From positions 545,653-609,652 of the forward strand of contig JBGAVD010000002.1 of NCBI GenBank assembly GCA_044228285.1: 64,000 nucleotides of DNA, written 5' to 3'. The stretch comes from Chlorobiota bacterium (GTDB lineage Bacteria > Bacteroidota > Ignavibacteria > Kapaibacteriales > NICIL-2). The translations under genes and the position numbers were made by a program. A model generated the notes under the pieces. The model searched no databases, had not been told where the DNA came from, and saw nothing but the letters and a program-made list of their open reading frames with translations. Shown one piece after another: positions 5,357-45,410 of the stretch (its first letter is position 1; every line of letters starts with the position of its first letter).

Positions 5357-8300
5357 TTAGGGTTGAATGATGCTCAAGTCTATGTTAACAGCCTGAGGGT
5401 TTACAGCAGACGCAGTTGCATTCACGAACTTGATCCGAACCGTATCAGTAGCTGATACTCGCACTGATGCGATACAAATGCCATCCTCCATATCCTCGCG
5501 AGGTGAAAGGTGTACTGTGCTTCCGACAACTGCGCCTGAAACTGTCAAATCTACATAAGCAGTTCCACCGCTTGCTGCGATTGTTGGACAATCGATGGTC
5601 TGATCCAGAAACTGCAACACTTGACGTCCCCAACTCATAGCACCCGACGTGCTGCTCGTTAACATTCTGTCTGAAGATGTTGGTGTGCTTGCAGGTAGCG
5701 AGAACTGAATATCGGTCGCGATACTATCTGGCGCTTTCAAGGAAACGTAATTCGTGCCATTCGGGAAGGCACCAGTTGTATTGTACTTTTCATAGAACCT
5801 CAAAGAACGAGGTGAGTTGTCGTTGGTTGTTAGCCACAAGTCTACATTATTAAACACTGCGGTTTGCGACTGGCTGATACTGATTGGTTTCACAGTAGAC
5901 GACGTGCTACCGTTAAATCCTATCGAGCCTGCGGCTGAGTTTTCAAGTGTCATGCGGGCTCCACCGAGAACGGTAGCATTATCAGCCGCTACAGAGTTTA
6001 GGTATCCGCCGACAACACAGGAATATGGGCCACTCGCAGTGTTGCTTTCGCCGCCGCAAACGACAGACGAGACACCCGAGGCCGTATCTTGTAAACCACC
6101 ACAGACAGTAGCCGAATATCCACTGGCAACATTCTGACGTCCACCGCCTAGCACACTGTAGCTGCCGCTTGCATTGTTCTGAGCACCCCCACCAACGCTT
6201 GAGTGGTTGCCATCGGAGCTGTTGTGCTCTCCACCTGTAACAACAGCGTAGTCGCCGCTCACAAGGTTTTGAGCACCGCCTGAAAGAACAGAATACAATC
6301 CACTGGCGACCTGCGAAGCAGAAGAACGAATCATCTGCCAATCAACAGCCATAGAGCCTCGTTTGTTTCCGCCGTCGATGGCGTTGTCTGGTACTTGAGC
6401 AAGTATTGCTCCGCTGCCGCTAGGGGACAGCGCAAGGTCAATGTCACCAGTCGTTGTAGGACGAAGTTGCACGACGTTCGTCGTGGCATTAGGAGCTGTG
6501 CTATGAAGACTTTCAGCTATGTGTTGCAAGCTGAATGTTGGTGTTGACCAATTCATCGCACCGCTTCCATTGGTTGTCAGTACTTGACCTGATGTACCAA
6601 CGGAGTCTGGAAGAGTGAAAACCAAATCAGCGGATAGGGAGTTGGGTGCTTTCAGTGCGACATAGTTTTTGCCATTAGGAAACGGACCAACATTCTCGTT
6701 TTGTTCATAGAAACGGAGTGTCCGAGTTTGACCATCATTGTTCGTCAACCAGAAGTCAACGTTGTTAAACACAGCAGTACGGGCTGTGGTAATGCTAATG
6801 GGTTTTGTGAGTGCATCATTGTCGCCATTAAATCCGATACTATGCATCGCAAGACTATCAAGCGTCAGATTGGAGCCACCTAAAACAGTAGACCACTCAG
6901 CAGCAGCGGAATTGTACGTTCCGCCGCACACCGTTGAGCCAGTAGAGAGGGCGAGATTGTGCGCACCACCCGCAATGACATTGTACGTGCCCATACTGGT
7001 ATTCGTGTCTCCACCACCGATTGTCGAAGCATACCCTTGAATCACATTCTGTATGCCTCCACCAATCGTTGAAGCTTTGCCCTCGATAAGGTTGTACGAG
7101 GCAATGTTGTTGTATAGGCCGCCACCGATAGTGGCACCGTCAGCACTCGAAAGAATGGAGTTAACAAAGCCACCGCCAACAGAAGAGTGTAGAGAGGCAG
7201 AGGTGTTAGCCCAGCCACCACTGATTGTAGCACTCTCGCCGCTAGCGACCTGAGAGGCAGAGGTTCTCCCACGTTGCAGATCCACAGCAAATGCACCGCG
7301 TTTGTTTCCACCGTTCGAGCTGTTGTCGGCACGTTGTGTACAAAGTGCTCCTGTTCCTTTCGGCGTTATTGCTATATCAATGTTTGTCTCTGTACCTGTA
7401 GCACTAATCTGATGGACTGGAATCGTCGTGTTTGGAGTACTCGTGTTTCTACTTTCTGAAAAGTATGATAGAGTATTGCTGTTCAAGCTGGTCCAACCGA
7501 GGTTGCCTGAACCATCAGTGCGTAGCACCTGGTTTGCAGTTCCATCGCTACTGGGTAGTGTCCAGACGAGGTCAGAGGGGATAACAGGTGGGGCTTTGAA
7601 GCCCACATAGTTGGCTCCATTTGGGAAGTTTCCTGTTGCGCTATCCTGCTCATAGAATCGAAGACTGCGGTTTAGACCATCATTGTTTGTGAGCCAAAAG
7701 TCTACATTGTTGAACACCGCTGTATGGTGAGAAGAAATTATCATCGACTTTGCGAGCTCGCCGGTACCATCGCCGTTGAAACCAAATGAGTGTTCAGCAG
7801 CAGAATCAAGTTCGAGATGGCCTCCACCTACAATCGTGGAATACATGCCTCTCACGCGGTTACCATTTCCTCCGCACACGGCTGAGAATTCTGCTGTTGC
7901 TGTGTTTAGCCGACCGCCACTCACTGTTGAAGCGAAGCCACTACTTACATTGTCGTAGCCGCCTCCAACAGTTGAGGCTTCATTGCTACTAATATTCTTA
8001 CCGCCACCAGAAACAGTAGAATTGTCTCCACTACTCTCATTCCAATAACCTCCACTCACTGTAGCGCCCAGTCCACTCGCTGTGTTACTCTGACCGCCGC
8101 TAATCGTTGATGAAAAACCACTTGATACCATTTCTGGGAACAATCTGTCCATTTGCCAATCAACAGCAAAACCTCCGCGCTTGTTTCCACCAGCATCTGT
8201 GTTGTCTGCCACTTGTGCGCATATCGCTCCGTCTTCTTTGGGTGTGAGCGCGAGATCTATTCGCGTCTCACTACCAACTGCCCGCAATTGATGCACAGGT

Positions 8301-11300
8301 ACTGCAGTGTTTGGTCCACTCGTATTTCTGCTCTCAGCCCAAAAGCTAAGACTACTACCACCTGCTACTTGCCATGAAACACTTGTTCCATTGGTCGTTA
8401 GTACTCGGCCTCCATTTCCACTTTGACTTGGAAGGAGATTACTAATAGCTCCATTTTGATTGGTTGCACCAGTTCCACCGCTTGAGATGCCGAGAGTTCC
8501 ACCGAGAGTAATCGTACCAGAGGAAGTTATCGGACCACCACTAGCTGTTAATCCAGTGTTTCCGCCTGATACGTTTACTGAGCTGACAGCACTTGAGCTG
8601 CTTACAGTGGTCCAGCCTAGATGTCCAGAACCATCTGTCTTTAGAACTTGATTTGCAGTACCATCACTGTTTGGAAGAGTCCATTCGACATCGTCGGTGA
8701 TGTTGTTCGGTGCTTTAAAGGCAACATAGTTTACATTGCCGTTTGGAAACAAGCCAGGTGAGTTGTATTTCTCATAAAAGCGAAGGGTTCGTGGGCTATT
8801 GTCATTGTTCGTCAGCCAGAAGTCGACATTATTCACAGCGAATGTTCGCGGAGTTGCGATAGAAAAGTCACATTGTTGCACTTGATGGCTACCATTATAG
8901 ACTACAGAATGATCAGCAGGGAATTGGATAATTGCGTTCGTTCCACCCAGAATGGTGGAGTTGCGAGAGAGAATTGAGTTTTGGAAACCACCAATAATGA
9001 CTGAATGCGATCCATAAATGGAATTTCCCGAACCTCCACTTACTACTGACATATCAGCATTTGGTCCTATAAAGTTGCTTGTTCCACCGCCAATCAAGCC
9101 TCCCAGACTTTCAACTCTATTCCCCGCTCCACCGCATATTGCAGAGTATTGGTTTAGAGCTTTGTTTCCAAAACCTCCGCAAACCGTTGAGAGGTCACCT
9201 CGCGCTGTATTTGAACGACCACCCAAAAGAGTAGAATAAATACCACTCGCAACCTCTGTAGGATCGTCACGCCAGCGTTGAAAATCCACTGCATACGACC
9301 CTCTCTTGTTTCCACCAACTTCAGTGTTGTCTGCGGTATGACTACTAAGGGCTCCATTACCCTTAGGTTTCAACACGAGGTCGATATTGGCAGCCGTTCC
9401 AAATGCCCGGAGGGCATGCGCAGGGACACTATCGTTTGGCGTTAGCGTGTCGCGTTTCTCCTCCAAGAATTGAAAACCGCTTGATCCAGGAATCCATGAA
9501 GTTCCATTCCACTTTATAACTTGACCAGCAGTCGCACCCATGCTGTGGATTTTGTCGGCCGTCACCGACGCTGCAGCTAGTTTAGATGAAGTGACAGCTG
9601 AATTCGCAATAGTCGGATTGGGATAGCTGCCATTGAGTTCACCACCTGCGGTGCCCGAAGGTGGGAGTGCAGAGGGGATGACTCCGGTGGCAAGTTTGGC
9701 ACTTGTAACTGACGCATCTTGAATGTTTAGTGTGCCGACAGCATTGTTGGCAAGTTTTGCGTTCGTGATGGTAGCCGTGCCAACCGTTGGATTAGGGTAG
9801 GTACCACTAAGGTCGCCACCAGCTGCACCGTTAGGCGGCAATGTGGTCGGTATTACACCTGTGGCAAGCTTAGCAATTGTTACAGACGCGTCTTGAATGT
9901 TTGTTGTACTCACTGCATTGCTTGCAAGTTTTGCGTTCGTAATTACCGCAGTGCCAACCGTTGGGTTAGGATAGGTACCACTTAGGTCTCCACCTGCTGC
10001 TCCGTTAGGTGGTAATGATGTAGGAATGATGCCACTCGCGAGTTTTGAACTCGTTACCGATGCGTCTTGAATATTCGCAGTGCCAATTGCGTTCGCGGCA
10101 ACTTTTGAGTTCGTGACAGCGTTGTTCGCCAAGAGAGGATTAGGATAGTTGCCACTTAAGTCGCCTCCAGCTGAGCCACTCGGTGGGAGAGAAGTTGGTA
10201 GAACACCAGAGGCAAGTTTCGCTGACGTGACAGAAGCATCCTGAAGATTACTTGTGCCAACGGCGTTCGTTGTCAGCTTTGCATTATTTACACTATTGTT
10301 AGCGACAATCGGATTCGGATAAGAGCCCGCAAGATCACCACCCGCCGCTCCGCTTGGGGGTAAGGTAGATGGAATCACACCAACAGCGAGCTTGGTAGCG
10401 TTTACAGATCCATTGGCTAGCTTCTGCGTGGTCACGCTTGAATCGACAATGTGAACGGTACCAACGGTGTTTGGAGCCAGCTTGCTGCTCGTGACACTTG
10501 CATTTGAAAGCGTTGGGTTTGGATAGCTGCCATTGAGATCGCCGCCTGCAGCGCCATTTGGCGGAAGTGCGTTTGGAAGAACGCCTGGTGCCAACTTCGC
10601 GAGTGTCACTGCTTCATCGGCGATCTTTCTTGTGCTAACACTGGCATCTTGCATGTTGTAGCTTGCCACTGCATTGATCGAGAGCTTCGCATTGCTTATG
10701 GCTTCATTTGCGATAGAAGGATTGGGATAGCTACCCACGAGATCACCGCCGGCACTACCAGCAGGAGGGAGTGAACTAGGTATCACTCCTGCAGCCAATT
10801 TTGAACTAGTAACCGATCCATCTTGGATGTTCGTGGTTTGTACTGCGTTCTGAGCAAGTTTCGAGTTCGTTACTGCACTCGCTGCAATCGTTGGATTTGG
10901 ATAGAGTCCACTCAAATCTCCTCCAGCTACTCCGCTCGGTGGTAACGTTGTTGGAAGAAGTCCAGGACTCAGTTTAGCGCTTGTAACGGCGGCATCTTGG
11001 ATGTTTGCCGTTCCGACCGCATTTGTAGCGAGTTTTGAGTTGGTAACAGCTGCAGCTGCTATACTGGGATTTGGATAGCTGCCGCTTAAATCTCCTGCTG
11101 CTGCACCATCAGGCGGAAGACGTGTGGGTAGCAGTCCAGGGGCAAGTTTCTCACGAGTGACTGAGCCGTCGGCAATCTTCCCACTGCTAACACTTGCATC
11201 TCTGAGATTAGTCGTCTCGACAGCGTTCTGCGATAGTGCGGTATTTGTAACTGATCCTGGTGCAAGGCTTGGATTTGGATACGAACCTGTCAAATGTCCA

Positions 11301-11815
11301 CCGGCTGACCCATTTGGTGGAAGGCTCGAAGGAATGACTCCGCTTGCTAGCTTTTCAGCGCTTATAGAATTGTCGGCGATGTTGATTGATTGAATTGCAT
11401 TAACCGCCACAGCGTTTGCAGAATCTGCAATACCAGCACGCTGTGAGTAGAGAGCGTAGGGCACAGCAGTCAATTGAGTCCGCGGCATCATTTCATCGTT
11501 GCTGGCTACTGAAACACCTAAAAAGTATGGACGGTTGAATGTGATGCTGTTTGGTATCGGAACCTGAGAACCTATGATGAGGCTAAAGATTCCTTTGATA
11601 ACGGAGGCGCGGTGCGCCTCCGTGTAGATAGGATCGGTAGAGCCCATAGTGGTGTATAAGCGCAGAGTAATGAGATACTCCCCATCTGGAAAGAGAGTAC
11701 CATCAGTTCTTACTAGCATTCCTTGATAGGAAATGTTACTCGGCACCTTCGCACTGAGTTGAATCGTGCTTGATAACAAGGCAATGAAAAGTACTATGCT
11801 GGAAGTCTTCAACAT
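5357..11815 (-). CDS. Giant (2152 aa) secreted repeat protein, adhesin or tail-fibre-like, with YadA-head/Hep_Hag-like 14-residue beta-roll repeats
   Basis: Signal peptide MLKTSSIVLFIALLSSTIQLSA. The N-domain starts ISYQGMLVRTDG...LRLYTT. It is followed by ten ~58-aa tandem repeats (KLAxGxxPxxLPPxGxAGGDLxGxYPNPxIAxxAVTNxKLAxNAVxTxNIQDAS). Then come four ~330-aa units, each ADNxxxGGNKRG + (ASGxYSxVxGGxxN)n + TAVFNNVDFWLTNNDxxxRxLRFYE...ANQVLxTDGSGxLGWT. No T9SS CTD at its own C-terminus. Confidence 0.85.
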   Translation of the reverse strand: MLKTSSIVLFIALLSSTIQLSAKVPSNISYQGMLVRTDGTLFPDGEYLITLRLYTTMGSTDPIYTEAHRASVIKGIFSLIIGSQVPIPNSITFNRPYFLGVSVASNDEMMPRTQLTAVPYALYSQRAGIADSANAVAVNAIQSINIADNSISAEKLASGVIPSSLPPNGSAGGHLTGSYPNPSLAPGSVTNTALSQNAVETTNLRDASVSSGKIADGSVTREKLAPGLLPTRLPPDGAAAGDLSGSYPNPSIAAAAVTNSKLATNAVGTANIQDAAVTSAKLSPGLLPTTLPPSGVAGGDLSGLYPNPTIAASAVTNSKLAQNAVQTTNIQDGSVTSSKLAAGVIPSSLPPAGSAGGDLVGSYPNPSIANEAISNAKLSINAVASYNMQDASVSTRKIADEAVTLAKLAPGVLPNALPPNGAAGGDLNGSYPNPTLSNASVTSSKLAPNTVGTVHIVDSSVTTQKLANGSVNATKLAVGVIPSTLPPSGAAGGDLAGSYPNPIVANNSVNNAKLTTNAVGTSNLQDASVTSAKLASGVLPTSLPPSGSAGGDLSGNYPNPLLANNAVTNSKVAANAIGTANIQDASVTSSKLASGIIPTSLPPNGAAGGDLSGTYPNPTVGTAVITNAKLASNAVSTTNIQDASVTIAKLATGVIPTTLPPNGAAGGDLSGTYPNPTVGTATITNAKLANNAVGTLNIQDASVTSAKLATGVIPSALPPSGTAGGELNGSYPNPTIANSAVTSSKLAAASVTADKIHSMGATAGQVIKWNGTSWIPGSSGFQFLEEKRDTLTPNDSVPAHALRAFGTAANIDLVLKPKGNGALSSHTADNTEVGGNKRGSYAVDFQRWRDDPTEVASGIYSTLLGGRSNTARGDLSTVCGGFGNKALNQYSAICGGAGNRVESLGGLIGGGTSNFIGPNADMSVVSGGSGNSIYGSHSVIIGGFQNSILSRNSTILGGTNAIIQFPADHSVVYNGSHQVQQCDFSIATPRTFAVNNVDFWLTNNDNSPRTLRFYEKYNSPGLFPNGNVNYVAFKAPNNITDDVEWTLPNSDGTANQVLKTDGSGHLGWTTVSSSSAVSSVNVSGGNTGLTASGGPITSSGTITLGGTLGISSGGTGATNQNGAISNLLPSQSGNGGRVLTTNGTSVSWQVAGGSSLSFWAESRNTSGPNTAVPVHQLRAVGSETRIDLALTPKEDGAICAQVADNTDAGGNKRGGFAVDWQMDRLFPEMVSSGFSSTISGGQSNTASGLGATVSGGYWNESSGDNSTVSGGGKNISSNEASTVGGGYDNVSSGFASTVSGGRLNTATAEFSAVCGGNGNRVRGMYSTIVGGGHLELDSAAEHSFGFNGDGTGELAKSMIISSHHTAVFNNVDFWLTNNDGLNRSLRFYEQDSATGNFPNGANYVGFKAPPVIPSDLVWTLPSSDGTANQVLRTDGSGNLGWTSLNSNTLSYFSESRNTSTPNTTIPVHQISATGTETNIDIAITPKGTGALCTQRADNSSNGGNKRGAFAVDLQRGRTSASQVASGESATISGGWANTSASLHSSVGGGFVNSILSSADGATIGGGLYNNIASYNLIEGKASTIGGGIQNVIQGYASTIGGGDTNTSMGTYNVIAGGAHNLALSTGSTVCGGTYNSAAAEWSTVLGGSNLTLDSLAMHSIGFNGDNDALTKPISITTARTAVFNNVDFWLTNNDGQTRTLRFYEQNENVGPFPNGKNYVALKAPNSLSADLVFTLPDSVGTSGQVLTTNGSGAMNWSTPTFSLQHIAESLHSTAPNATTNVVQLRPTTTGDIDLALSPSGSGAILAQVPDNAIDGGNKRGSMAVDWQMIRSSASQVASGLYSVLSGGAQNLVSGDYAVVTGGEHNSSDGNHSSVGGGAQNNASGSYSVLGGGRQNVASGYSATVCGGLQDTASGVSSVVCGGESNTASGPYSCVVGGYLNSVAADNATVLGGARMTLENSAAGSIGFNGSTSSTVKPISISQSQTAVFNNVDLWLTTNDNSPRSLRFYEKYNTTGAFPNGTNYVSLKAPDSIATDIQFSLPASTPTSSDRMLTSSTSGAMSWGRQVLQFLDQTIDCPTIAASGGTAYVDLTVSGAVVGSTVHLSPREDMEDGICIASVRVSATDTVRIKFVNATASAVNPQAVNIDLSIIQP
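5620..9580 (-). repeat. Coding repeat: four diverged ~1-kb (≈330-aa) units inside the giant gene
   Basis: Four blocks each contain GGNKRG, Gly/Ser-rich 14-residue repeats and the near-invariant AVFNNVDFWLTNND...LRFYE...FPNG.NYV..KAP motif. Boundaries are approximate. Confidence 0.65.
9600..11440 (-). repeat. Coding tandem repeat: ~10 copies of a ~174-nt (58-aa) unit inside the giant gene
   Basis: Ten successive G[STLN]YPNP motifs at ~58-aa spacing in the translation. Boundaries are approximate. Confidence 0.7.
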
Positions 11816-12739: not shown

Positions 12740-14356
12740 ATGACTCCTTCACAAGATCTCCATCAATTGATTCACTCTCTCTCGAGTTCGGAGAAGCGGT
12801 ATGTAAAGCTATTTGTGGCAGGAACGAGTGGTGGAAGCGAGACTATCGCTCTGCGTGTCATAGATGCAATTGCAAAACAAGAAGTGTACAACGAAACGGC
12901 ACTTCTTCGGAAGTTTTCCAAGGAAAAGTTCGCTTCAAACTTTGCCGTCTATAAAAAGCATATCCTCTCTGTTATTCTGCGTGCTGCTGCCACATACCGC
13001 GATAACATCGATCAAAAAGAGTCACTCCGATTGCGGCTGCGAGAGATACTCTTTCTCTATGAGAAAAGTCTCTACAAACTGTGTCATAAGTTGAACCAGA
13101 AACTACAGGCTGATGCTGAATCATCAGAATGCTATACGCTGTTGATTGAAAGCCTTGATGTCGAGCGAAGACTCTTGACCTGCTCAGAGGCGAATGAGTT
13201 GTTTCCTGAACAGCATCATATTCTCATTCGGGAGCTTGAAGAGCGTATGACAACCGTTGTTGAACAATTGAATCGTGTCAATATGATGCAGATGGCATAT
13301 GAGCGGTTGCTTTTTGCAGTAAAGAACCCTGGTGTCGAGTTTCAGTCCATAGCTGGTATGAAAACCTGGGCAGAGACTGTCCTAAAACCGTCCTTGTTCT
13401 TCTCCAATCAAGAGTACACGTCCTTCTCGGAGCAACGACTGTTCCACGTAGTGCGAGCCTACTATCACTCTGCCTTTTGCGTGAACTCAACAAGTGATCC
13501 AGATCAACAACGTAACGAGTTCGTGCACTCAATCACGCATGTTCGCGCTCTCGTTGACTTGTATGGAAGAAACAATAATCGCAGTGTGTTTGTTGGCGAG
13601 TACTTTGAAGATGCGAGAATGATATCCGCTGTGCTAAGCCAGACTTTCCTTCATCATGATGCGCTTCAATTCATACAGGACTGGCGAAGCCAGGCCATGA
13701 ACATGAAAAGCTTTATCAGCAAGAACTGGGATGTGATTATTCTGAACACCTTCGTGCGTGAAGGGTACATTCTCATAGAACTCTTCGATGACAAACTCTC
13801 GATTGACTATCTAGAGAGAGTACGTACAATAATCGATGACAATTCGTCTGACCAAGCACATGAACTGATTCGATCCATAGAGTATGTATGCGCCTGGCTC
13901 CTCTATTCTCTCGGTCGTTATGACGAGTGCATTGGTGTGTGTGCGCGAATCCTGAATTCAACAACACTTGAGCTCCTACATGAGAATGTGCGGATCATTC
14001 AGCTTGCTGCTTTCTTTGAGAAGAAAGAGTATGAGATACTCAATTCAATAGCTCGTTCTTCGCTGCGACAAGTTCAACAGAACAAAGCTCTGCACGGCTA
14101 CAAGTCTTTTCTGCACTGCATGATTGGAATCTCATCTGCTGGATCGCAGAAGCAGATAGATAAGTGCATACGCACTTTTCAGAAGAAGGTGATCGAGTTC
14201 AACCAGAAAGAGTATGGTAGTGATTTCTCGGACTATCTGGAGACTGGTATCGAATTCCCGATCGTTTGGGCGGGAGCCCAGTTAGCCCGTAGACGCTACT
14301 CAGAAGAGCATCGGGAACGAATGTCTTTGCTTAAGAAAGCTCTACAAGTGGACTAA
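12740..14356 (+). CDS. Hypothetical cytoplasmic alpha-helical protein (538 aa)
   Basis: ATG start. Long uninterrupted ORF with no signal peptide or TM segment, helical/TPR-like composition and no recognisable catalytic motif. Flanked by long non-coding DNA. Confidence 0.55.
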   Translation: MTPSQDLHQLIHSLSSSEKRYVKLFVAGTSGGSETIALRVIDAIAKQEVYNETALLRKFSKEKFASNFAVYKKHILSVILRAAATYRDNIDQKESLRLRLREILFLYEKSLYKLCHKLNQKLQADAESSECYTLLIESLDVERRLLTCSEANELFPEQHHILIRELEERMTTVVEQLNRVNMMQMAYERLLFAVKNPGVEFQSIAGMKTWAETVLKPSLFFSNQEYTSFSEQRLFHVVRAYYHSAFCVNSTSDPDQQRNEFVHSITHVRALVDLYGRNNNRSVFVGEYFEDARMISAVLSQTFLHHDALQFIQDWRSQAMNMKSFISKNWDVIILNTFVREGYILIELFDDKLSIDYLERVRTIIDDNSSDQAHELIRSIEYVCAWLLYSLGRYDECIGVCARILNSTTLELLHENVRIIQLAAFFEKKEYEILNSIARSSLRQVQQNKALHGYKSFLHCMIGISSAGSQKQIDKCIRTFQKKVIEFNQKEYGSDFSDYLETGIEFPIVWAGAQLARRRYSEEHRERMSLLKKALQVD

Positions 14357-15552
14357 GTGCTTGCTTCTATCAAACTCCAGACATTGCGAGTGCCTCACTG
14401 AACTTCGAGATAGTACGAGTTATACGATGATTCTGTCGCTGTCTTAGTGTGGTGAATAAGCGAGAGTGGAGTAGTGTTTGAGATACACGAGTTAGGCCCA
14501 ACTTGATAGACACTGTCGCTCTGTTAACCCTCATCAGGAGCTCGAAACCGTTTAGCTCTGGCAGAATGTCAGCCTCAACCTTTTCAATGCTACACTCCAA
14601 CTCACCTTGGTTTGATCTACTAACATGCTGCCCAGCTACGTGAGCTCACGGATTACGCTCGGGCACTTAGCACACGATCTCCACGGTCACTATTGGACGG
14701 GACTAGGACTGAGTGATGACGAACGCAACAATCCAGTGAGTAGTCATATGGCTACCCGCATCGACACTGTGCAGCGTCCACACGACGTGTCACAATCGCA
14801 GGACAGACAATAGTAGAGTTCCGCGCAGATCGGGGACAACAGTCGTGATTGCAGACAGTACGATTCGTCAACATGGGGTAGAAACTCACACTATTGACAC
14901 AAGACATTTTACTTCTGACTATTAATACAAAAAAATACTATTAAACATCTTGGCAGCATGAATGCGAAAACATGTGCTCTGTGTCGACAGATAATTGTAA
15001 GTTGTTGCAGTTACAACTGCAATGTGGACATTGTACAGAGTACGGTTGGACTTTTGATGGGAATGCAAACGTCTTTCCTCGATGACTGAGAAGTGAGATT
15101 CGTGATTCGGTCAGTCGGAGCATGGGTGAGTTGTTGAATTGTTGTGCTGTTGTTTCGGTTGAACATACAGTAGAGCTTTTGAGTTGACATGTTTATGCAA
15201 CCAAGCCTAATAATCAACGCTCTGGAGAAACACCTGTGAATTGTAAGATGCCTGTAGTTACAGGCTGTTTAGTCTTCATTATAGAGATTCAATAATATTG
15301 ATTGAACGTTATAGGCGGCATTGAAATTGAGCGCCGCTTTTTGTTTGGGAGACTATTGTTAACAGAGGTTGGTTTGAAAAAGCGCACAACGTCCATACAA
15401 CCTGGACGAAGACGAGCCGTGCGTTGAGTCCACAAAGAATACGAGAAGACACTTTCGATTTCTTGGAAGACGCAGTTTTACAACGCGGACATTGTGCATA
15501 CCGTTTGATTTTTAAGCTCTGTTGAGGGCTTTACTCGAGGATACGCAAAACG

Positions 15553-15587
15553 TTAACCTTAACCTTAACCTTAACCTTAACCTTAAC
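15553..15587. repeat. Hexanucleotide microsatellite (TTAACC)5 plus TTAAC
   Basis: Perfect tandem copies read directly from the sequence, ~95 bp upstream of the ATG at 15681. Confidence 0.95.
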
Positions 15588-15664
15588 GCAAGCCTTTTAC
15601 TGAGTGTCATTTTTGCTTGTGACACTCTATCCAGCATCAACCGAGCAATGCATTGATTCATTAG

Positions 15665-15674
15665 TTTTTTTTTT
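15665..15674. repeat. Homopolymeric T10 tract immediately upstream of the start codon at 15681
   Basis: gtttttttttta read directly, 6 bp before the ATG. Confidence 0.9.
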
Positions 15675-15680
15675 ACCATT

Positions 15681-16178
15681 ATGGAGAATAGTATGAGTAC
15701 GTTCAGGACTACAGTAGTCGTATTGGCACTACTAGTAAATGTAGGCAGCATGTTTGCACAATCAAACCCGGCTCCAAACAAGCAGTTCGGCATTGGAGTT
15801 GGAACAAGAGGTGCAGAGTTTGTGTACGCTTTTAGTCCTTCCATTCAGTTTGGCAGCTACGTCGGTCTACGACTCGGCGATGGCGAGACCATGGTAAGCT
15901 TTACTCCAAATCTGCGCATTCTGTTTGAAGGAAATGTCAACATGTTCCTCCAACCAGGCTTGAGCTTTTCGTCGACAAGCATGACAAGAAATGGCATTAC
16001 ACAATCTAGCTCGTCAACATCGGTTCTATTAGATGGTGGGCTAGTGTATTACATCCGACCTTCTTTGGGCTTGATTGGATCGATTAAGGTTGTCGATTTA
16101 GGACTAGGACAAGATGGCGTAGCAAAGTTTGGTTTGTTTGGCGGTGACATCGGAATTGAGTGGTTCTTCGCTCCTTAG
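15681..16178 (+). CDS. Small secreted or outer-membrane protein (hypothetical)
   Basis: ATG start. Signal peptide TVVVLALLVNVGSMFAQ. Gly/Ser-rich with alternating hydrophobic beta-strand pattern. C-terminus ...IEWFFAP. Confidence 0.5.
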   Translation: MENSMSTFRTTVVVLALLVNVGSMFAQSNPAPNKQFGIGVGTRGAEFVYAFSPSIQFGSYVGLRLGDGETMVSFTPNLRILFEGNVNMFLQPGLSFSSTSMTRNGITQSSSSTSVLLDGGLVYYIRPSLGLIGSIKVVDLGLGQDGVAKFGLFGGDIGIEWFFAP

Positions 16179-16702
16179 AGTTACTGTACGAGTCCTGCTT
16201 GCATCCAAGATTCACGTGACTCAGCAATACGTGAAGCCCGTACTCTTTAGTTCATCAGAGTACATGCGCCCGCGCGCTACATGAAGCCACTTTGGCGACA
16301 GGGTAACTATGCCATTCACTTGTCCGCTACAGCAATTGAATTCGTAGTAGCGGCAACGTTCGTATGGCATTGTCTCCGCTCAGGAATGCATGTGTATCGG
16401 AGTATGTTGGCCACGCACCGAATTGCGAATGAGTAATGAAATTCATGCTTACACGGACATCATTTCATCTGAGCGTTCTCGGGTGTAGGTGTATTGTTAG
16501 TACGCTAGGTCCAAGTAGCAGGCTGGCAAGAAGACAGTGAAGTAGTTCTTGCAGGTTGTTCGCAAATCGATAACAGGTTGCATGCGCGTCGTGCACACTG
16601 TGCTTTGCGAGTGTTATATCGTTGCACAACGAGAACGGAGCGTGTAGACCACCACGGACGCCGTCATAAAAATCATAGAATATCAACGATAAGGAAACGA
16701 GA

Positions 16703-17314
16703 ATGAAAGCACTTTTGTGTCTGATAATACTCTCTGGTGCCGTCTCGGCACAGAGCTCTGAGAAATCCGTAACGTCCAAAGTCCTCAACGCAGTTCAGCA
16801 ACTGAACCCTTGGCAGAATCAGTTCTGTTTTACCATCGACGCCGCCTTTCCGGTTGGCTCAACAGCCAACCTGCTCAGTGGCGGTATGGGATTCAATGCC
16901 ACCTATTATTACCATGCCTTCTCACACAACGAATTTCTCTCATTCGGTATTGGATATTTTTCCATGCCCTATGTGTCGATAGTGGACTACCACTATACAA
17001 CCGTTCCTATCCAAGTTGGATACCGTTACAACTTCGAAGTGAGAAGTGTACAGCCCTACGTCGGCGCAGAGATTGGTGCTGCATATACGACTTCCGCGAT
17101 ATTGAGTGATACAGTTCGAAACTCCTCTGAGTACAAAACAGAAACTGGATTCCCATTTATAGCCACGGTGAAAACAGGAGTCCGCGTGCCACTTGATAAG
17201 AATGTGGATATGGATGCACATATCAAGTACAACTCCACCTTTTCAAGTCCTACAGCTATACAGTTTATGAACGTAGGTGTGGGCGTGTCCTTCCGCTTTG
17301 ATACCAAAGAATAA
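16703..17314 (+). CDS. Outer-membrane beta-barrel protein (OmpA-N / opacity-porin-like)
   Basis: AGGA-type RBS before the ATG. Signal peptide MKALLCLIILSGAVSAQS. Amphipathic beta-strand periodicity. C-terminal ...GVGVSFRF with a terminal aromatic typical of OMP barrels. Confidence 0.6.
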   Translation: MKALLCLIILSGAVSAQSSEKSVTSKVLNAVQQLNPWQNQFCFTIDAAFPVGSTANLLSGGMGFNATYYYHAFSHNEFLSFGIGYFSMPYVSIVDYHYTTVPIQVGYRYNFEVRSVQPYVGAEIGAAYTTSAILSDTVRNSSEYKTETGFPFIATVKTGVRVPLDKNVDMDAHIKYNSTFSSPTAIQFMNVGVGVSFRFDTKE

Positions 17315-17837
17315 ATCCGTCAGAAGCTAAGCTAATGTTGCGCACTCGATACACTCATTGCATGAGTAGTACAGAGCTGTTAGCGATCCACGCACTCTAA
17401 GTGTCGTGCAAGGGAACAGGGCATTTGTTGTACAAAGTGCCCCACAAAACAGCTTCTATTTGAAGAGAGACCATCTATAGTCTCACGATGAATCAGGGCA
17501 TCTTCACCGAACTGCGAAACGCTAAGCAATTGAAAGTGCCAGTGGATGTGTTCTACAAGCATGCTTTGCGTATGTTGATTGAAAAGCGCAGCAATTAGTA
17601 TAGCGTGATAGGCTATAGTGGGTGGAAATCAGCTTGAGATTCCGCGTACAGGCCATCTAACCCCCACCGAAGAAATGCCGAAACAAGTACTGCGCCGTAG
17701 CACGACTCTGTAGAGGACGTCTCCGAGTACTGAGTAGTCTCATGAACATTCGCTACGCAGAAAGATGCACAGTCCTCGGCTGCCTTGATCTTTGCATCAG
17801 CGCATTAATCCGCCGAATCGCTGTAGGTGTACAATAC

Positions 17838-20360
17838 TTAGCGATCAACGACCAGTTTTCCGCTCACAAGGTCCTCACCAAGTTGGAGCGTATATATGTA
17901 GGTGCCGTTTGCGACGTGGTTGTTTGCTGAAGCATCCCATCGTGCCAGGTAGTTCCCGCTGCTTACACGTGCATGGACAACCGTAGCCACACATTGTCCT
18001 TGAGAGTCGTAAACCTTCAATGTACACTCTGCACCTTCGCGATTCTGAGGGACGATAAAAGCAAAGAGAGCCGAGCTGCGGACTGGGTTAGGAGACACAA
18101 AGCTTTGAACTGTGCTGGTCACTGAGTTTTCAATGACATCCATGACAAGATTGGCTCCTGGGCTTTGCAGTTCACCAAGTGTATCAGTCATGTAGAGTCG
18201 TGTCAAACTCGGACGCATGGATGTAGAGTGGTACAGCTCTGACCATTCTTGGTCCGATAAGCGCTGGAAATTCTGAGTAACATACTCATAGTAACTATAA
18301 ACGGGTCCAAAGTATGCCGTTGAGCAGTCGTCAATATCTTTGGCTATTACTACTGCTAAGTTTGGTGCACCAGTTGCAACATGTAAGACCTTACCTACAA
18401 GGCTCCCACTTTCGTCGGAAGGTTGCGTGTGAACATCAGCAACACAGAATCCTGTTTCAAAACTCTTCAACACATGTGGATTCATGCCATATTGAAGCTG
18501 AGGGTAGTATCCTCTGTAGTAGACAATATCACAGTCAGATTCTTTCGATATCCAATTGGATATCAACTCTTCATCATCAGTGCTAAACGCAAGGTGCATG
18601 AGTTCCTTGTCTGCAAGCGACGCAAGTCTTTCACATATCTGTGCCATCGTTCTTAATGAGGAGTGCAGGCTGGGACTAAGGTCTTTAACATAACAAGAGT
18701 CTACTATGGGTTCCAGACGCGTGCAGATTGCAGACAAACGCCGATACAGAGACGGCATCGGTTCCACGTAGCCCTTAGGATAGAAGCAGGCTGATATTGT
18801 TGTGTAGGGTTGCTTTGCATACAGTAGATAGTCATGTCGCAATTCCGCCCACGCAGCAAGTTGGGTATTCAGATTCTTTTGCCACCATGCTGCTGTTTGC
18901 ATATGTAATGGAAGTGATGCACGTAGCCCTTCTGTAGGCGGATTCAAATGTCGCAGAACGTCCAATCGTGAAGTGTACACAGAGTTATACCAACCATCTT
19001 GCACATACGAATCGATCATATACCGTATTGCTGCAAGATTCGGAGCGTAAGAATAGCGATTCACATCGTCCGCTAAATATTGCAGTGCAGCATTGTTTCC
19101 CAATGCGAACATTGCATCAAGTGGTTTTGGCATCAAGCGTAACTTAACTTGATCCGCAACGAGCTGTCCAAAGACGTAAGAATCAATAACAAAGCGCTGC
19201 CCTAAGAAAAGAAAAGCAGGCGCTGGTTTGACGGTGTCTTTACCGTTTGATTCTAAGAGTTGACTCAATATGCGTTGTTCGGCACCTGCATCTCGTGCCT
19301 GTTTCTGAAAGAGCAAGAGGAGTGAGTCATTAGACATTGATGAAACACTCAGTTTATTACTCTCGATAATTGATAAAAGGTCTGCTTGTTTCAGATTGTC
19401 TTGCGGTCCAGCAAATGCTTGAATACACTTGTCAACGAGTGAATAGTGAGCTTCATACGCGCCCGATCGAAGCAAAAGTGTGCTCAAGTAAATCGACAAG
19501 GCGCATTGACGTCGTATGTCTGCATCAGAAACTTGGGATGCACTTATTGGTTTCTCGATGTAGATCTCCGTTCGCCCAAGCCACATCATTGCCTTGAAAT
19601 AGGATGGCAATCTGGATGGAGTAGGCTTGTCATAGTGACCACGAAGCTTGAACATACTCCAATCAACCAGCCTCCATGATTGTGAAAAAAGTTGAACAGA
19701 GCTCGGCTGTAATAACTCAATTGCCTGAAGCAAACCATCCATCTGGCTACTATTCTCTGTGTAACATGGACTGATGGTTGCAGTATCGTGCTCATTTAAG
19801 AGCTTCAGTGCCATGCATAGATACAGATCCGCATCTAAACTCGCTTGCAGACTAAGAGAGTCGGTAGGAGGTAGTTGCTTGTCGGACAAAAGGATAGAGT
19901 GCATTGCGCGCAGAGTAGTATCAAGATGATAGGACAGCGAATGCTGCTCGAGATCACTTAAGATGTTGTCAAAGCTTGTGTGCGTCGCATTGAGAATGGC
20001 ATCAGAAGAAATAAAAACAGGCAAATCCTTTCTGTAGATATCGTAAAACCAAGCGTTGAAGTCTGGTTTTTTCAATCGATCACTAACAACAAAACTATGC
20101 TTCTCGAGAAGTGCTTTCTCTCCACTCGTGAACTTATACTTCGTATCACCCATGTCAAAAAACTGGGCTGTGGAGAGATCAGCAGGAGCGCTCTTTAAAA
20201 AGCTGCCTGCGTCGAAACGCTGTTGCAAATCTTTGTAGTCGTAGTTCTTCGTCGTGTCAAGAAAACGCTTGTATGCGCTTACATCGAACTGTGAACGGAC
20301 GGTGACCGTTGATATGCAAAGCGCGCACATCAGAATGAGGGGAACACTTAAAGTCTTCAT
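17838..20360 (-). CDS. Large secreted protein (840 aa) with T9SS C-terminal sorting domain. The N-terminal domain is unassigned.
   Basis: Signal peptide MKTLSVPLILMCALCISTVTVRSQ. C-terminal ~85 aa (...PNPVRSSALFAFIV...YIYTLQLGEDLVSGKLVVDR) are a type-A T9SS CTD. Confidence 0.75.
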   Translation of the reverse strand: MKTLSVPLILMCALCISTVTVRSQFDVSAYKRFLDTTKNYDYKDLQQRFDAGSFLKSAPADLSTAQFFDMGDTKYKFTSGEKALLEKHSFVVSDRLKKPDFNAWFYDIYRKDLPVFISSDAILNATHTSFDNILSDLEQHSLSYHLDTTLRAMHSILLSDKQLPPTDSLSLQASLDADLYLCMALKLLNEHDTATISPCYTENSSQMDGLLQAIELLQPSSVQLFSQSWRLVDWSMFKLRGHYDKPTPSRLPSYFKAMMWLGRTEIYIEKPISASQVSDADIRRQCALSIYLSTLLLRSGAYEAHYSLVDKCIQAFAGPQDNLKQADLLSIIESNKLSVSSMSNDSLLLLFQKQARDAGAEQRILSQLLESNGKDTVKPAPAFLFLGQRFVIDSYVFGQLVADQVKLRLMPKPLDAMFALGNNAALQYLADDVNRYSYAPNLAAIRYMIDSYVQDGWYNSVYTSRLDVLRHLNPPTEGLRASLPLHMQTAAWWQKNLNTQLAAWAELRHDYLLYAKQPYTTISACFYPKGYVEPMPSLYRRLSAICTRLEPIVDSCYVKDLSPSLHSSLRTMAQICERLASLADKELMHLAFSTDDEELISNWISKESDCDIVYYRGYYPQLQYGMNPHVLKSFETGFCVADVHTQPSDESGSLVGKVLHVATGAPNLAVVIAKDIDDCSTAYFGPVYSYYEYVTQNFQRLSDQEWSELYHSTSMRPSLTRLYMTDTLGELQSPGANLVMDVIENSVTSTVQSFVSPNPVRSSALFAFIVPQNREGAECTLKVYDSQGQCVATVVHARVSSGNYLARWDASANNHVANGTYIYTLQLGEDLVSGKLVVDR

Positions 20361-27523: not shown

Positions 27524-29404
27524 TTAGAATATCGTATATAGTATCAATAGTGCGAGAACTGTTCCCACAACGACGGCAGCAAAGCCGAAGAGGCGCAAGC
27601 CAATTTCTACTGGCAGTGGAGTAGGTTTGGTGACCACGTAGTCCTTTGTGTTGCCGGTTTCATTGTAGCGTTTCCATTGGTCCATTCGTTCATGTCGCAT
27701 TTCCTCCTCACTGATTTGACCATTGAAGATGACGAAATCCATAGGGAATTTCTCTACTCGTAGGTGCGTGTTAAAGAAGTGAATCGTAAAGATGAATCCT
27801 ACAGCGAGGAGTGCTTCGTCGGAGTGGATGATGGTTGCTACATTAAACACCCAACCAGGTAAAAAACCTCCAAAGAACTCAGGCATCCATAGTATGAGAC
27901 CACTTGAGCCGATAACGCCGACGCCCCAGAATACAGCCAGAAAGTCAAACTTCTCCCAATATGTCCAACGATCAAACGTTGGCTTTGGCCCTTTGAAAAA
28001 GAACCACTTAAACATTGCGATCATGTCGCGAAGATCGCGACGGTTTGGAAACAGGCTATCAGGTCCAAACAAACGCTGCAACATGGTCTCTTTCGGCGCA
28101 CGCTTCGTGATGAGGAAGCGTATACTCATGCCGAGTGTGACAAAGAAGTATCCGAAGGTGACAACGGCTGCCAGACGGTGGATGAGACCAGCCGAGGCAA
28201 CACCGCCGAGAAGGTCCATGAGTGCATGTCCCCATTGGGTCTCGTTGAACTTCAAGGGTAGACCAGTTATAGCAAGGGTTAAGAAACTTGTGATGACAAA
28301 AATGTGGAGGATGATGTGTATTGGACGGAAACGACGATACACTTTCTGCGCTGCATGCTGTTTTGTTACTTCGGTGGCTGCGCCACCGAAGAGGGCTGCA
28401 TTGGCAAGATGCTTCTTCTCAACAAAGCCTCGATACATCCATAGTAATGAGTGCAACCAGAAGAATAGAAACGTACCAGCCAGTAATCCATTCATGCTAA
28501 TGGTCACCCAAAAGAGCAGAGGATTGGCTTGTCGGTTCCCAGGTTCAGCATGCGGAAGGTATTTGGCAAAGCCGTTACCTGCATCCTTATGACACTGCCG
28601 ACAGGTCGTTGTGAGGTTGTTAGGATGTATCGATGAATGAGGATCATCCTTTGGGAGAATCTTGTGCGACTCATGGCAATCACTACAACCAGCAACTTGT
28701 TCAGGATGACCTAGGCGAACGTTCTTGCCGTGGTAGCTTTCGAAATACGAAATTGGTGCGATTGTGGTGACTTTGTTACGCGCCATTTTATCGGCATCAG
28801 CATGACACTTTAAACACGCTTGAGTATGAAACATGCGGCCTTGCTGGACGTTGTCTATGCGATCGATGGCGTGCAAACCATGGCAATCCACACAGCCCGG
28901 AGCATCCTTACTGCCTTCTTTTATAGCTTTGAAGTGACTCGATTCGAAGAAGGACGATTGCTTGTCATGACATTGAGTGCAGAGTTGGGCAGTGGCAATT
29001 TTGTCGTTCTTGATGGAGCGTAAGCCGTGTATCTCCGAGTGACACTTAGCGCAGGTAATTGGCAGACGTTTTGAGTTGTGTACGCTTTTCTCGTGATCGT
29101 TGACCACAGAAGAGTGGCAGCTCACACACTGTGTTGGCTTGAATGAAGCAACGCACTTCTTGTCTGTACCCTCCGCTGCAAATGGAGCCTTAGTGTGATC
29201 TTCGATATGGCATGCTGCGCATTGCAGTGACTTGTGTACTGAGCTGTTATATAAAGCAGAGTACTTATGATCACCATGGCATTTCTGACAATCTGAGTTT
29301 GACTGCGTATGTGTTTGAGTGTTCTGCGCACGCGTATTGGTACCGCTCATTACAAGTATCACCAGGCAGGCGGCTAGTTTCGAGAGTTTGGATAGTACTG
29401 ACAT
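27524..29404 (-). CDS. Nine-heme c-type cytochrome fused to a membrane dihaem cytochrome b (FdnI/HydC-like) domain. CbcL-like quinol oxidoreductase.
   Basis: Signal peptide MSVLSKLSKLAACLVILVMSG (internal ATG at 29404; the ORF is open to 29491). Nine CxxCH motifs (CQKCH, CAACH, CVSCH, CAKCH, CTQCH, CVDCH, CLKCH, CSDCH, CRQCH). The C-terminal ~330 aa have at least four hydrophobic helices with conserved His, resembling the b-type cytochrome of formate dehydrogenase or hydrogenase. Confidence 0.8.
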   Translation of the reverse strand: MSVLSKLSKLAACLVILVMSGTNTRAQNTQTHTQSNSDCQKCHGDHKYSALYNSSVHKSLQCAACHIEDHTKAPFAAEGTDKKCVASFKPTQCVSCHSSVVNDHEKSVHNSKRLPITCAKCHSEIHGLRSIKNDKIATAQLCTQCHDKQSSFFESSHFKAIKEGSKDAPGCVDCHGLHAIDRIDNVQQGRMFHTQACLKCHADADKMARNKVTTIAPISYFESYHGKNVRLGHPEQVAGCSDCHESHKILPKDDPHSSIHPNNLTTTCRQCHKDAGNGFAKYLPHAEPGNRQANPLLFWVTISMNGLLAGTFLFFWLHSLLWMYRGFVEKKHLANAALFGGAATEVTKQHAAQKVYRRFRPIHIILHIFVITSFLTLAITGLPLKFNETQWGHALMDLLGGVASAGLIHRLAAVVTFGYFFVTLGMSIRFLITKRAPKETMLQRLFGPDSLFPNRRDLRDMIAMFKWFFFKGPKPTFDRWTYWEKFDFLAVFWGVGVIGSSGLILWMPEFFGGFLPGWVFNVATIIHSDEALLAVGFIFTIHFFNTHLRVEKFPMDFVIFNGQISEEEMRHERMDQWKRYNETGNTKDYVVTKPTPLPVEIGLRLFGFAAVVVGTVLALLILYTIF

Positions 29405-29429
29405 TGTGCAAATCCAGAATGAATAATGT

Positions 29430-30626
29430 TTAGCCGCAGAGTCCGCCCGCGCGTTTCTTGGAAGCAATCTTAATTTTCTGTACGTATGCATCTTTCGGGA
29501 ACTGCTTTAAGATCTCCGATGGAGGTGCTGCAATGTTCACTTTGTGTCCAGCTACGGTTTTGCCGGCAAAGAGTGAATTCCAGTTCGTTAGGCCTTTCTC
29601 AAGGATGTAGAGGTTTGCAACACCTTGAACCTTTAGATACTCCCAAGCTTTAACTGCTACAGTTTCATTGTCTGAAACAAGGACAACTACGCCTTGCGCT
29701 GGAAGTTGTGCGTACGGTGATACTTTCTTCGCATCGAGAAGATCCTCGAGAGTTACGTTGAGTGCACCGTTCAGATGAAACTTCTCAAACTCATCCGCAC
29801 CACGCAGGTCTAGACACACAAGCTTGATACTTGCTTCATTGTAGGTCTTCACGTATTCGAGCGGATGTATAAACACAGCCTTTGAGCGGAGTAGTGGCGA
29901 GTAGGTGTTCTGCATGATTTCCCACTTGCGCACTGGGTCGGGTTGGCCTATGAGCCAGACGCATGCAGCTGCTAGAACGAGTGCGCCGGAACCCAGCTTA
30001 TAGGATCGTTTCGAGATTGTCCACGACATCGGTGTGTCAGTGCCACGATTTCGGAAATACTCTTCTGTTTTCTCCGCAGCGTAGAACATGACGAGTGCCA
30101 TGATCGTGACGCCGAACACGGTAGCACCAACTGACCATCCAAGCCATTCATTGAGGATGTAGCGATCGGTGAACGAGGAGTACCAAAAGTCTTCGAAGCT
30201 TGACAGAGACTCTCCGAAGATTCCTGCACCAATGACTGTTCCGATGAGAAAGGCGAGGCCGTCGATCTTGAAGCTTGCAGTTGCGACGACTGAAGTTCCA
30301 GGACAGTAGCCTCCGATGATGAAGCCAACTCCCATGATCAAGCCACCAATGATTCCTGGCCAGAGAAATGTCTGATTAACCGATAGTTGTGAGAAGTCTA
30401 AGTAGCCCAATCCCGCTGCGCCAAACGTAAGTAAACAAGCCACGATGATGCCCGTGAACATAGTTTTCAGAACCGTCATATCTTTTAGATAGAACTGCGC
30501 TGCGAGACGTCGGGAGTCTCCAAAGCCTGCAATCTCCAGGGCGAAGCCGAAGGCTGAGCCTATTAAAAAGAAGACAAAGTATCCGCCTGCTTTACCCAGA
30601 ATGCTAATGATGTCGATAGGTAACAT
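29430..30626 (-). CDS. YeeE/YedE (TsuA-type sulfur/thiosulfate transporter) half fused to a C-terminal rhodanese-like domain
   Basis: GYCPGT motif in a TM helix, a YeeE/YedE signature. After one further TM helix there is a ~100-aa rhodanese-fold-like region (...VVVLVSDNETVAVKAWEYLKVQGVANLYILEKGLTNW). The start is ATG 30626 (GGAG 11 nt upstream) or TTG 30641. Confidence 0.75.
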   Translation of the reverse strand: MLPIDIISILGKAGGYFVFFLIGSAFGFALEIAGFGDSRRLAAQFYLKDMTVLKTMFTGIIVACLLTFGAAGLGYLDFSQLSVNQTFLWPGIIGGLIMGVGFIIGGYCPGTSVVATASFKIDGLAFLIGTVIGAGIFGESLSSFEDFWYSSFTDRYILNEWLGWSVGATVFGVTIMALVMFYAAEKTEEYFRNRGTDTPMSWTISKRSYKLGSGALVLAAACVWLIGQPDPVRKWEIMQNTYSPLLRSKAVFIHPLEYVKTYNEASIKLVCLDLRGADEFEKFHLNGALNVTLEDLLDAKKVSPYAQLPAQGVVVLVSDNETVAVKAWEYLKVQGVANLYILEKGLTNWNSLFAGKTVAGHKVNIAAPPSEILKQFPKDAYVQKIKIASKKRAGGLCG

Positions 30627-30651
30627 TGTCGTCTGCTCCAAGTGTGATTAA

Positions 30652-31173
30652 TTAGTCAGCCCACAAACGGCGAACGAAGTACGCGACGGCATATCCGCCG
30701 GCAAAGACGCTGAACATGAATGCCCAGCTACCCAGAGATAGAACGGCACCTCCGGACAGTGCCTGACCTGATGTGCATCCTCTCGCTAAACGAGCACCAT
30801 AGCCCATAATGACACCTCCAACTAACGCTGCTATGATTCGTTGTGTATTGGTGATGCGTGCACCTTTAAAAATCTCTACCTTAAGTCGGCCATTGAAAAA
30901 GGCCGATGCCATACCTCCAGCAAAGGTTCCAAGCAACAAGAGCACGCTAGCATGATCGAGAGGATTGCGGTCGCCTGCTCCCATTGCCGCGAATGTTCCG
31001 ATGGCATCCACATGTGAAGACCAAACGATTTTCGTGAGCGCAACCTGAATACGACTAATAGCGCCAGAAGCGCCCAGACCACTATGGGTCAGCGCGAAGG
31101 CGCTGAAAAGCACCACTCCAAGAATGCTTCCAGCGAAGTACGGGTTCGTAACGGGTTTAGGAATCTTTTTCAT
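30652..31173 (-). CDS. YeeE/YedE family protein (other half of a split TsuA-like transporter)
   Basis: ATG start. 173 aa with 4–5 hydrophobic helices and a GCTSGQA motif, the second YeeE/YedE Cys motif. 10–25 bp from the neighbouring genes. Confidence 0.75.
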   Translation of the reverse strand: MKKIPKPVTNPYFAGSILGVVLFSAFALTHSGLGASGAISRIQVALTKIVWSSHVDAIGTFAAMGAGDRNPLDHASVLLLLGTFAGGMASAFFNGRLKVEIFKGARITNTQRIIAALVGGVIMGYGARLARGCTSGQALSGGAVLSLGSWAFMFSVFAGGYAVAYFVRRLWAD

Positions 31174-31193
31174 AATATTCTTAGCTCCTAGAA

Positions 31194-32621: not shown

Positions 32622-33381
32622 TCGCTCTCGGTATGTTGGTCGGAACTCTTGTTGATTTATCATGCGTGTTCTCATAAGTCACCTTTGTTGGAAGGGGAGT
32701 GTCTTTGATTCATGCTGGTCTTCGAAAGAGGCATGTTATCGCCATGGAGATGGGTCATGACATTCTCACGAATGCCAGTTTTCAGATTCATAGCAGGGCG
32801 TTGCCCGCTTGTCTGCGATCCCGATGGGTAAATGCTCGTTAGACTTCGCAGTGTTGTTGAAAATACCTGTGCACTAAAAGCGGGGTGCGAATTCACTCGG
32901 CAAGGATCTGTTGCGGCGAATAATAGCTCGTGTTGATATCTTCTGAGCCTTCTTTTGCTGTTTAGGGAGAGTATGGGAAACGGAACCTTCATTTCATCTT
33001 TCCGGGCTCGAGTTTGTAAGCAGAACTATCGACCAGAAAACTAATTAAGATAATTTTGTCCTAAAATATGCAATAGGTCAGAAAAGAACGAAGAAAAGTT
33101 TTCAATAGCAAGTCTGCAGCATCGAACACCCGGGTAGCCGAGACGCCATTCTGCCGAACTTAGATTGTGAAGTCGAGCATACATTGCTGCTCTGTGTAAC
33201 GAAACATGGGGTCGCTGGCTTCTAAGTGCTTATAAAGATAGACACATAGTTGCCTTGAAAAGCTTGGTGCTGAACGTGAACAGGTCTCTTACTCATTTTA
33301 CGAGTGTGTAACTGAGATTGAATGGACTATGCGAATTCAACCTCTAGTTTTCATTATCAGATTGCACATCACAAAGTTCTT

Positions 33382-45360: not shown

Positions 45361-45410
45361 ACTACTCAAAAAACACTCAAATACTCAAAAAGCACTCAAA
45401 AAATACTCAC
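45361..45410. repeat. Phased A-tract/ACTCA array (5 copies at 11, 8, 11, 11-bp spacing)
   Basis: ACTACTCAAAAAACACTCAAATACTCAAAAAGCACTCAAAAAATACTCAC read directly. It lies in an 1.1-kb ORF-free region ~440 bp upstream of the OMP gene start. Confidence 0.6.

Follow-up and report, generated by a model that had tools for sequence, protein, structure and literature searches.

The question raised by this locus is whether simple-sequence repeats (SSRs) lying ahead of a surface-protein gene work as an expression switch. Within the 64,000-nt stretch of DNA analysed here (hereafter, the window), a TTAACC hexamer tract and a run of ten T residues (T10) both lie upstream of a small OMP gene. SSR-mediated variation is classically found at OMP genes, and the original prediction took the two tracts for slippage substrates whose changes in repeat number would alter promoter spacing or leader length—making the region a possible phase-variable promoter. 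Upstream SSRs alone are no evidence of phase variation. Feature positions are collected in Table 1.

The identity of the downstream gene was established from its family and from structure prediction. A HMMER search of 1.84 billion representatives (E up to 1e-3) gathered an OMP family of 61 clusters, the closest sharing 74% identity and all others 28–43%. In the family alignment, the N-terminal signal peptide ends in AQ and the C-terminus has a conserved GVEWFF; the window protein ends in GIEWFFAP. Against PF13505 (OMP_b-brl) the window protein scored 17.3 bits, below the gathering cut-off of 28.7, and 17 of 26 family members matched this domain at E up to 0.01 (best E, 6.9e-08). AlphaFold2, run with a 26-sequence alignment (A4), returned a model with a pLDDT of 90.7, a helix at residues 3–15 corresponding to the signal peptide, and eight strands; with a 2-sequence alignment, the pLDDT was only 32. 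Foldseek searches of the PDB with the model retrieved OprF-N (4rlc, TMt 0.74), OmpA (1bxw and 1qjp), NspA (1p4t) and Ail (3qra), with E values of 2e-4 to 9e-4. The protein therefore combines a signal peptide, eight antiparallel strands and a C-terminal aromatic beta-signal with structural similarity to solved OMPs. From the predicted helix and strands, the Foldseek matches and the occurrence of PF13505 in relatives, we conclude that the gene is a real small 8-stranded OMP gene with a modelled OmpA-TM/OmpX/NspA-like fold, as the original prediction had it.

The start codon needs revision. ATG 15681, annotated as an alternative start (165 aa) and assumed in the original prediction, is less likely than ATG 15693, because the latter has a GGAG 6 nt upstream, the N-termini of the family fit a protein beginning MSTFRTT..., and the Logan gene call corresponds to the 161-aa product. 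The (LR)n reading frame on the opposite strand had been put down to translation of the repeat, and we reach the same view, since it runs antisense over the conserved OMP gene start and over non-conserved spacer.

Table 1. Features of the small OMP locus, with positions in the window.
Feature	Position	Strand	Basis
Spurious 110-aa ORF with (LR)n, repeat translation	15512..15844	-	antisense over conserved OMP coding start
Hexanucleotide microsatellite	15553..15587	+	sequence; TRF score 71; 0/100 shuffles
Inverted repeat GAGTGTCA-N10-TGACACTC, candidate operator or RNA hairpin	15602..15627		sequence; sits between both tracts
Candidate -7-like box CATTTTTG	15608..15615	+	5/6 of TAnnTTTG; -33-like TTA = last repeat unit, spacer 22; weak, speculative
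T10 homopolymer in leader	15665..15674	+	sequence; 30/100 shuffles; same length in Logan contig L003
SD-like GGAG, 6 nt 5' of ATG 15693	15683..15686	+	sequence; similar purine-rich motifs before homologues' starts and second OMP gene
Small 8-stranded beta-barrel OMP gene, 161 aa	15693..16178	+	family, alignment A4, PF13505 in relatives, AlphaFold2 model, Foldseek
Second OMP_b-brl gene, 203 aa	16703..17314	+	PF13505 E = 3e-10; same gene pair in contig L001

Exact-protein look-ups returned no record for the 165-aa product, for protein P0001 or for the 538-aa protein encoded upstream, and just one Logan contig for the 161-aa and 203-aa products. A word-indexed homologue search retrieved only the protein itself and the 74% relative, on whose contig (L001) the second OMP gene is syntenic with the small OMP gene. 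Profile searches with alignment A1 gave no match in genome contigs or metagenome contigs. With alignment A6, two loci were recovered, and the only genome matches of the family are in MAGs labelled 'uncultured Ignavibacteria bacterium' and 'Candidatus Kapaibacterium sp.'.

Several features were also noted elsewhere in the window. T9SS sorting tails occur on several of the encoded proteins; together with the two MAG matches they point to an Ignavibacteria/Kapaibacteria-like member of the FCB group. A multihaem cytochrome c cluster (Cytochrome_C7, MtrC/MtrF-like and Cytochrome_cB) at 27524–32675 suggests a capacity for extracellular electron transfer. A 174-nt tandem repeat of about two copies (9687–10072, 78–82% matches) lies within a 2152-aa ORF (5357–11815) and presumably encodes repeated protein domains. 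At 45362–45410, five degenerate ACTCAAAAA(A) units, spaced by 8 to 11 nt, precede a TonB-dependent receptor gene (Plug and OMP_b-brl_3) by some 440 nt—a second case in which an OMP gene has a repeat array ahead of it.

The hexamer tract consists of five TTAACC units followed by TTAAC, an uninterrupted 35 nt flanked by acg and gc. Tandem Repeats Finder delimits it at 15549–15587 (period 6, 6.5 copies, 96% matches), and the tract of 5.8 units originally described is confirmed. The two-unit probe TTAACCTTAACC, allowing at most one mismatch, had five overlapping matches in the window, every one inside the tract, against an expected 0.15; none of 100 dinucleotide-preserving shuffles reached five matches. 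The tract is clearly non-random, far beyond chance, and is the sole repeat with more than four short units across the 64 kb. It is also solitary: within 300 nt there is neither an inverted partner nor a degenerate direct one. Its 3' end lies 93 nt from ATG 15681, close to the roughly 95 bp first reported, and 105 nt from ATG 15693. As a perfect SSR the hexamer tract is long enough to slip; T10 is present as well, but its length is within chance.

The hexamer tract lies outside the OMP ORF. Between 14300 and 17900 we found no sigma-70 consensus site, as against 5.4 ± 1.9 in shuffles, which is consistent with a promoter of non-sigma-70 type. Scanning for a Bacteroidota-type -7 box likewise placed no promoter for the small OMP gene: TTG-N17-23-TAnnTTTG had no convincing match there, a weak negative since the scan fails also for most other genes of the window, and TAnnTTTG is not enriched across the window (28 occurrences against 34 expected). 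The best -7-like matches, CATTTTTG (15608) and TAGTTTTT (15662), each agree at 5/6 specified positions and lack a proper -33 element. Weak as these matches are, the hexamer tract lies upstream of every one of them and of the SD-like motif, so that gain or loss of units should leave the -33/-7 and SD–ATG spacings unaltered. This geometry, with the tract upstream of a putative core promoter, argues against the proposal that hexamer number alters promoter spacing. Gaining or losing a unit would instead act solely by shifting the upstream DNA, by 6 bp or about 0.57 helical turn per unit.

Other elements of this non-coding region were also inspected. The GAGTGTCA/TGACACTC inverted repeat forms a 9-bp stem in both the MFE and the centroid fold, and the predicted fold of the leader RNA as a whole is no better than that of shuffles (z = 0.02). 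Rfam searches of 14300–17900, at the gathering cut-off and at E up to 1, gave no match, and no tRNA genes were found. The preceding 1.3 kb (14357–15680), in which no ORF exceeds 76 aa and Rfam has no match, may represent either an unannotated RNA or the decayed remains of a gene. Within it, at about 15315–15350, a hairpin with a T run resembles a terminator (hairpin, 15315–15345).

Evidence on the length of the hexamer tract came from an independent assembly. Logan contig L003 (run SRR28480390) equals window positions 15558–19359 with no mismatch in 3802 nt and starts within the tract, reading CTTAACC(TTAACC)3TTAAC and then GC, so that 30 nt of the tract are carried. Logan unitigs and contigs are built with k=31, k-mers seen once are discarded, and the 31-mers within a contig file are all distinct (PMC12424806). 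No 30-mer or 31-mer occurs twice in the window. When the graph was simulated at k=31, a pure 5.8-unit allele produced no branch; reads with at least 6.8 units, alone or mixed with 5.8 units, produced a branch node that is exactly the first 30-mer of L003; and a mixture of 4.8 and 5.8 units gave a contig start different from that of L003. A start at the branch node suggests that the tract in the SRR28480390 reads exceeds that of the window by one unit or more, i.e., at least 36 nt compared with 35 nt, an outcome that a foreign TTAACC tract or stutter reads could mimic. This one indirect hint suggests that SRR28480390 carries a longer hexamer allele, and we infer that the tract is probably unstable in copy number. 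The break could also have come from stutter reads seen at least twice; a TTAACC tract of at least 36 nt from another organism in the metagenome would be a rare but not negligible cause, and a G15552C substitution would likewise extend the in-phase tract.

Comparing relatives that carry the same gene, as the original prediction had proposed, yielded no counterpart of either repeat. Above the 74% homologue (P0002; contigs L001 and L002), the 115 nt upstream of the ATG contain neither a T run nor TTAACC or any other SSR; both contigs end at that point, so that a tract at an equivalent distance (at least 105 nt) would be barely covered. Over these 115 nt, the window and the 74% homologue share 50% identity, against 47.2 ± 2.5% for shuffled sequence and 71% across the CDS. 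An upstream region near shuffle level beside a conserved CDS shows that the spacer is lineage-specific, and the repeats are therefore not a conserved feature of the OMP gene. L001 (3074 nt) and L002 (723 nt), from two ENA assemblies, have an identical first base, 115 nt 5' of the ATG, and end without a visible repeat; they may share source reads, or an assembly-breaking feature may lie just upstream.

No SSR was found upstream of the ~40% homologues on L004 and L005 (the Ignavibacteria MAG and the Kapaibacterium MAG). These two loci share a Bacteroidota-type promoter, TTG-N19-TA(A/T)GTTTG, followed by a leader of about 95 nt. Promoter and leader are 79–87% identical, against 76% for the CDS; a leader no less conserved than the coding sequence may have a cis-regulatory role. 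In this promoter and leader region (L004:3875–4000 and L005:3805–3931), the leader holds a hairpin, GGAACTACAGA..GAACTTCC, and nothing similar occurs in the window.

We also asked where else such tracts occur. At least 120 JGI metagenome contigs carry (TTAACC)n with n of at least 5; they are mostly prokaryote-like and hold 5 to 20 units. Among the matches listed, 38 tracts lie between two well-defined genes, 17 in ++ and 9 in -- orientation, 9 convergent and 3 divergent. Signal-peptide-like genes flank the listed tracts on the promoter side in 15 of 53 cases and on the terminator side in 13 of 59, so that, among the matches listed, (TTAACC)n tracts have no bias towards genes for secreted or surface proteins. 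In viral contigs, five-unit arrays of TTAACC numbered 2, compared with 13, 2 and 39 for the control hexamers TTCCAA, TACACT and TCAACC; the idea of TTAACC as a special motif was rejected, as control hexamers were equally or more frequent. Hexamer SSRs of such size are a normal background of environmental genomes, and our literature search found nothing relevant on TTAACC repeats in bacteria.

On balance, we lean towards reading the hexamer tract as an ordinary, probably copy-number-unstable intergenic microsatellite, made and kept by replication slippage. Slippage would create and maintain such a tract in a long, poorly conserved non-coding spacer, here 105 nt before the OMP start. Since the core-promoter and SD–ATG spacings would be unchanged, the effect of gaining or losing units would be neutral or at most graded, by altering how far away or in what phase upstream DNA lies, with no ON/OFF switch. 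Should the length variation be real, some effect on expression is possible, and the tract is at best a candidate expression rheostat.

The principal alternative is that slippage of (TTAACC)n changes how far, and at what helical phase, an upstream element stands from the OMP core promoter. The amount of a surface barrel protein, e.g., a phage receptor, would then vary heritably and reversibly. We hold this to be possible but doubtful. A perfect tract 105 nt upstream of an OMP gene and the indirect indication that SRR28480390 holds a longer allele both speak for it, as do the hmw tracts, which modulate expression from a position about 100 bp 5' of their genes (PMC2651432). Yet the sigma-70 and -7 box scans identified neither a promoter nor an activator site, the tract has only 5.8 units and is missing above all available homologues (115 nt being covered for the 74% one), and no other SSR of its kind occurs in the 64 kb. 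Moreover, (TTAACC)n elsewhere is unlinked to surface-protein genes among the matches listed, and the graph break may stem from stutter reads or from a TTAACC tract that another organism contributed to the metagenome. We consider it unlikely that the tract is a true contingency element of a free-living Ignavibacteria/Kapaibacteria-like bacterium, with within-population variation in unit number tuning the small barrel—plausibly a phage receptor—from 5' of the core promoter.

T10 had been placed correctly, 6 nt before ATG 15681; what is not supported is its standing as a slippage substrate, given a length within chance and identical in a second data set. With the preferred start, T10 has 18 nt between it and ATG 15693 and 8 nt between it and the SD-like GGAG. 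No homopolymer in the window is longer, the remaining runs of at least 7 being A7, T8 and A7. At least two T9 matches arise in 30/100 dinucleotide shuffles, however, and the run is therefore not beyond chance; its length is unchanged in L003. A functional T10 would be a U-rich translational enhancer 5' of the SD, or part of the -7-like box TAGTTTTT (15662–15669), with the number of T residues tuning expression. The length of the run relative to all others in the window, the nearby GGAG and the agreement of TAGTTTTT with TAnnTTTG at 5/6 specified positions are compatible with such a role. We nevertheless regard it as improbable, because runs of this length fall within chance, the independent assembly has the same number of T residues, the 74% homologue has no T run in its 115 nt upstream, no -33 element stands at the correct spacing from TAGTTTTT, and a TSS set by that box would make the leader very short. 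Most probably, T10 simply belongs to an AU-rich leader as an unremarkable U-rich segment immediately 5' of the SD, and is not a demonstrated slippage switch.

The metagenome survey also revealed paired arrays. An inverted degenerate partner, (AGGTTG/AGGCTG)n, accompanies the tract in 18 of the 120 listed contigs (among them loci L055, L079, L043, L009, L016, L066, L093 and L112) and always lies on the 5' side, 18 versus 0, often 30–45 nt past a stop codon. The hairpins formed by such hexamer repeats have predicted dG values of about -10 to -80 kcal/mol. Strand specificity through G.U pairs was considered and rejected, 9/18 hairpins being more stable on each strand. By analogy, the tract of the window could be the remnant arm of an (AGGTTG)n-loop-(TTAACC)n hairpin, i.e., a decayed 3'-end or terminator-like element of the upstream transcription unit and not part of a promoter. 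The consistent 5' position of the partner, its frequent location shortly after stop codons and the rarity of divergent (promoter-only) contexts among the matches listed all favour this idea. It is nonetheless very improbable here: the tract has neither an inverted nor a degenerate partner within 300 nt, the closest upstream gene ends 1.2 kb away, and a separate terminator-like hairpin already stands at 15315–15345.

An assembly artefact, in which the assembler made the repeat or set its length, has next to no likelihood: short-read assemblers do struggle with repeats and the Logan contig does break at the hexamer tract, but that independent contig carries 30 nt of the tract, an identical right flank and T10 with no mismatch over 3802 nt, and reads easily span 35 nt.

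Taken as an ordinary microsatellite, the tract is a routine repeat beside a gene, useful in practice mainly for marking strain or population heterogeneity. If real, an upstream-repeat rheostat of the hmw/nadA kind would be the first case found for this lineage; our literature search found no paper linking phase variation with Ignavibacteria or Kapabacteria. Contingency regulation by SSRs would then reach beyond host-adapted pathogens into an environmental FCB-group lineage, where phage rather than immunity would be the likely selective agent.

The two tracts can be compared with known systems. In the Helicobacter pylori sabA promoter T tract, a rheostat, and the Mycoplasma vlp poly-A promoter tract, length varies and transcription changes. 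T10 resembles these in being a homopolymeric T/A run near a surface-protein gene's promoter or leader, and differs from them in being invariant in two data sets, within chance and absent from the 74% homologue (115 nt). For the hexamer tract, one parallel is the TAAA tract of Neisseria meningitidis nadA, which lies 5' of the core promoter and whose unit number shifts the phasing of upstream sites, not the -35/-10 spacing. A position upstream of the core promoter would also be the only geometry possible for the tract of the window; the regulator sites of nadA, for NadR and IHF, are known, whereas any such site for the window tract would be hypothetical. Another comparison is with the non-coding hexanucleotide SSRs of Haemophilus influenzae, which have 2–3 units and were judged non-regulatory (PMC2651432, section 3.10). 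There, too, short tracts lie in non-coding DNA and evidence for switching is slight or absent, although the 5.8 perfect units of the window tract make it more slippage-prone. The (TGAAAGA/ATCTTTC)n heptamers of H. influenzae hmw1A/hmw2A number 13–38 units, vary among strains and have measured effects on expression (PMC2651432). The likeness consists in a tandem repeat about 70–106 bp upstream of a surface-protein gene, with a unit whose length is not divisible by 3 or that is non-coding, and in hmw1A/hmw2A the number of units modulates expression without shifting the reading frame (PMC2651432). The tract studied here differs in having 5.8 units, one indirect hint of variation, a putative promoter and an environmental FCB-group host. 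Its geometry is that of the nadA or hmw type, and not that of the hif or porA spacer type.
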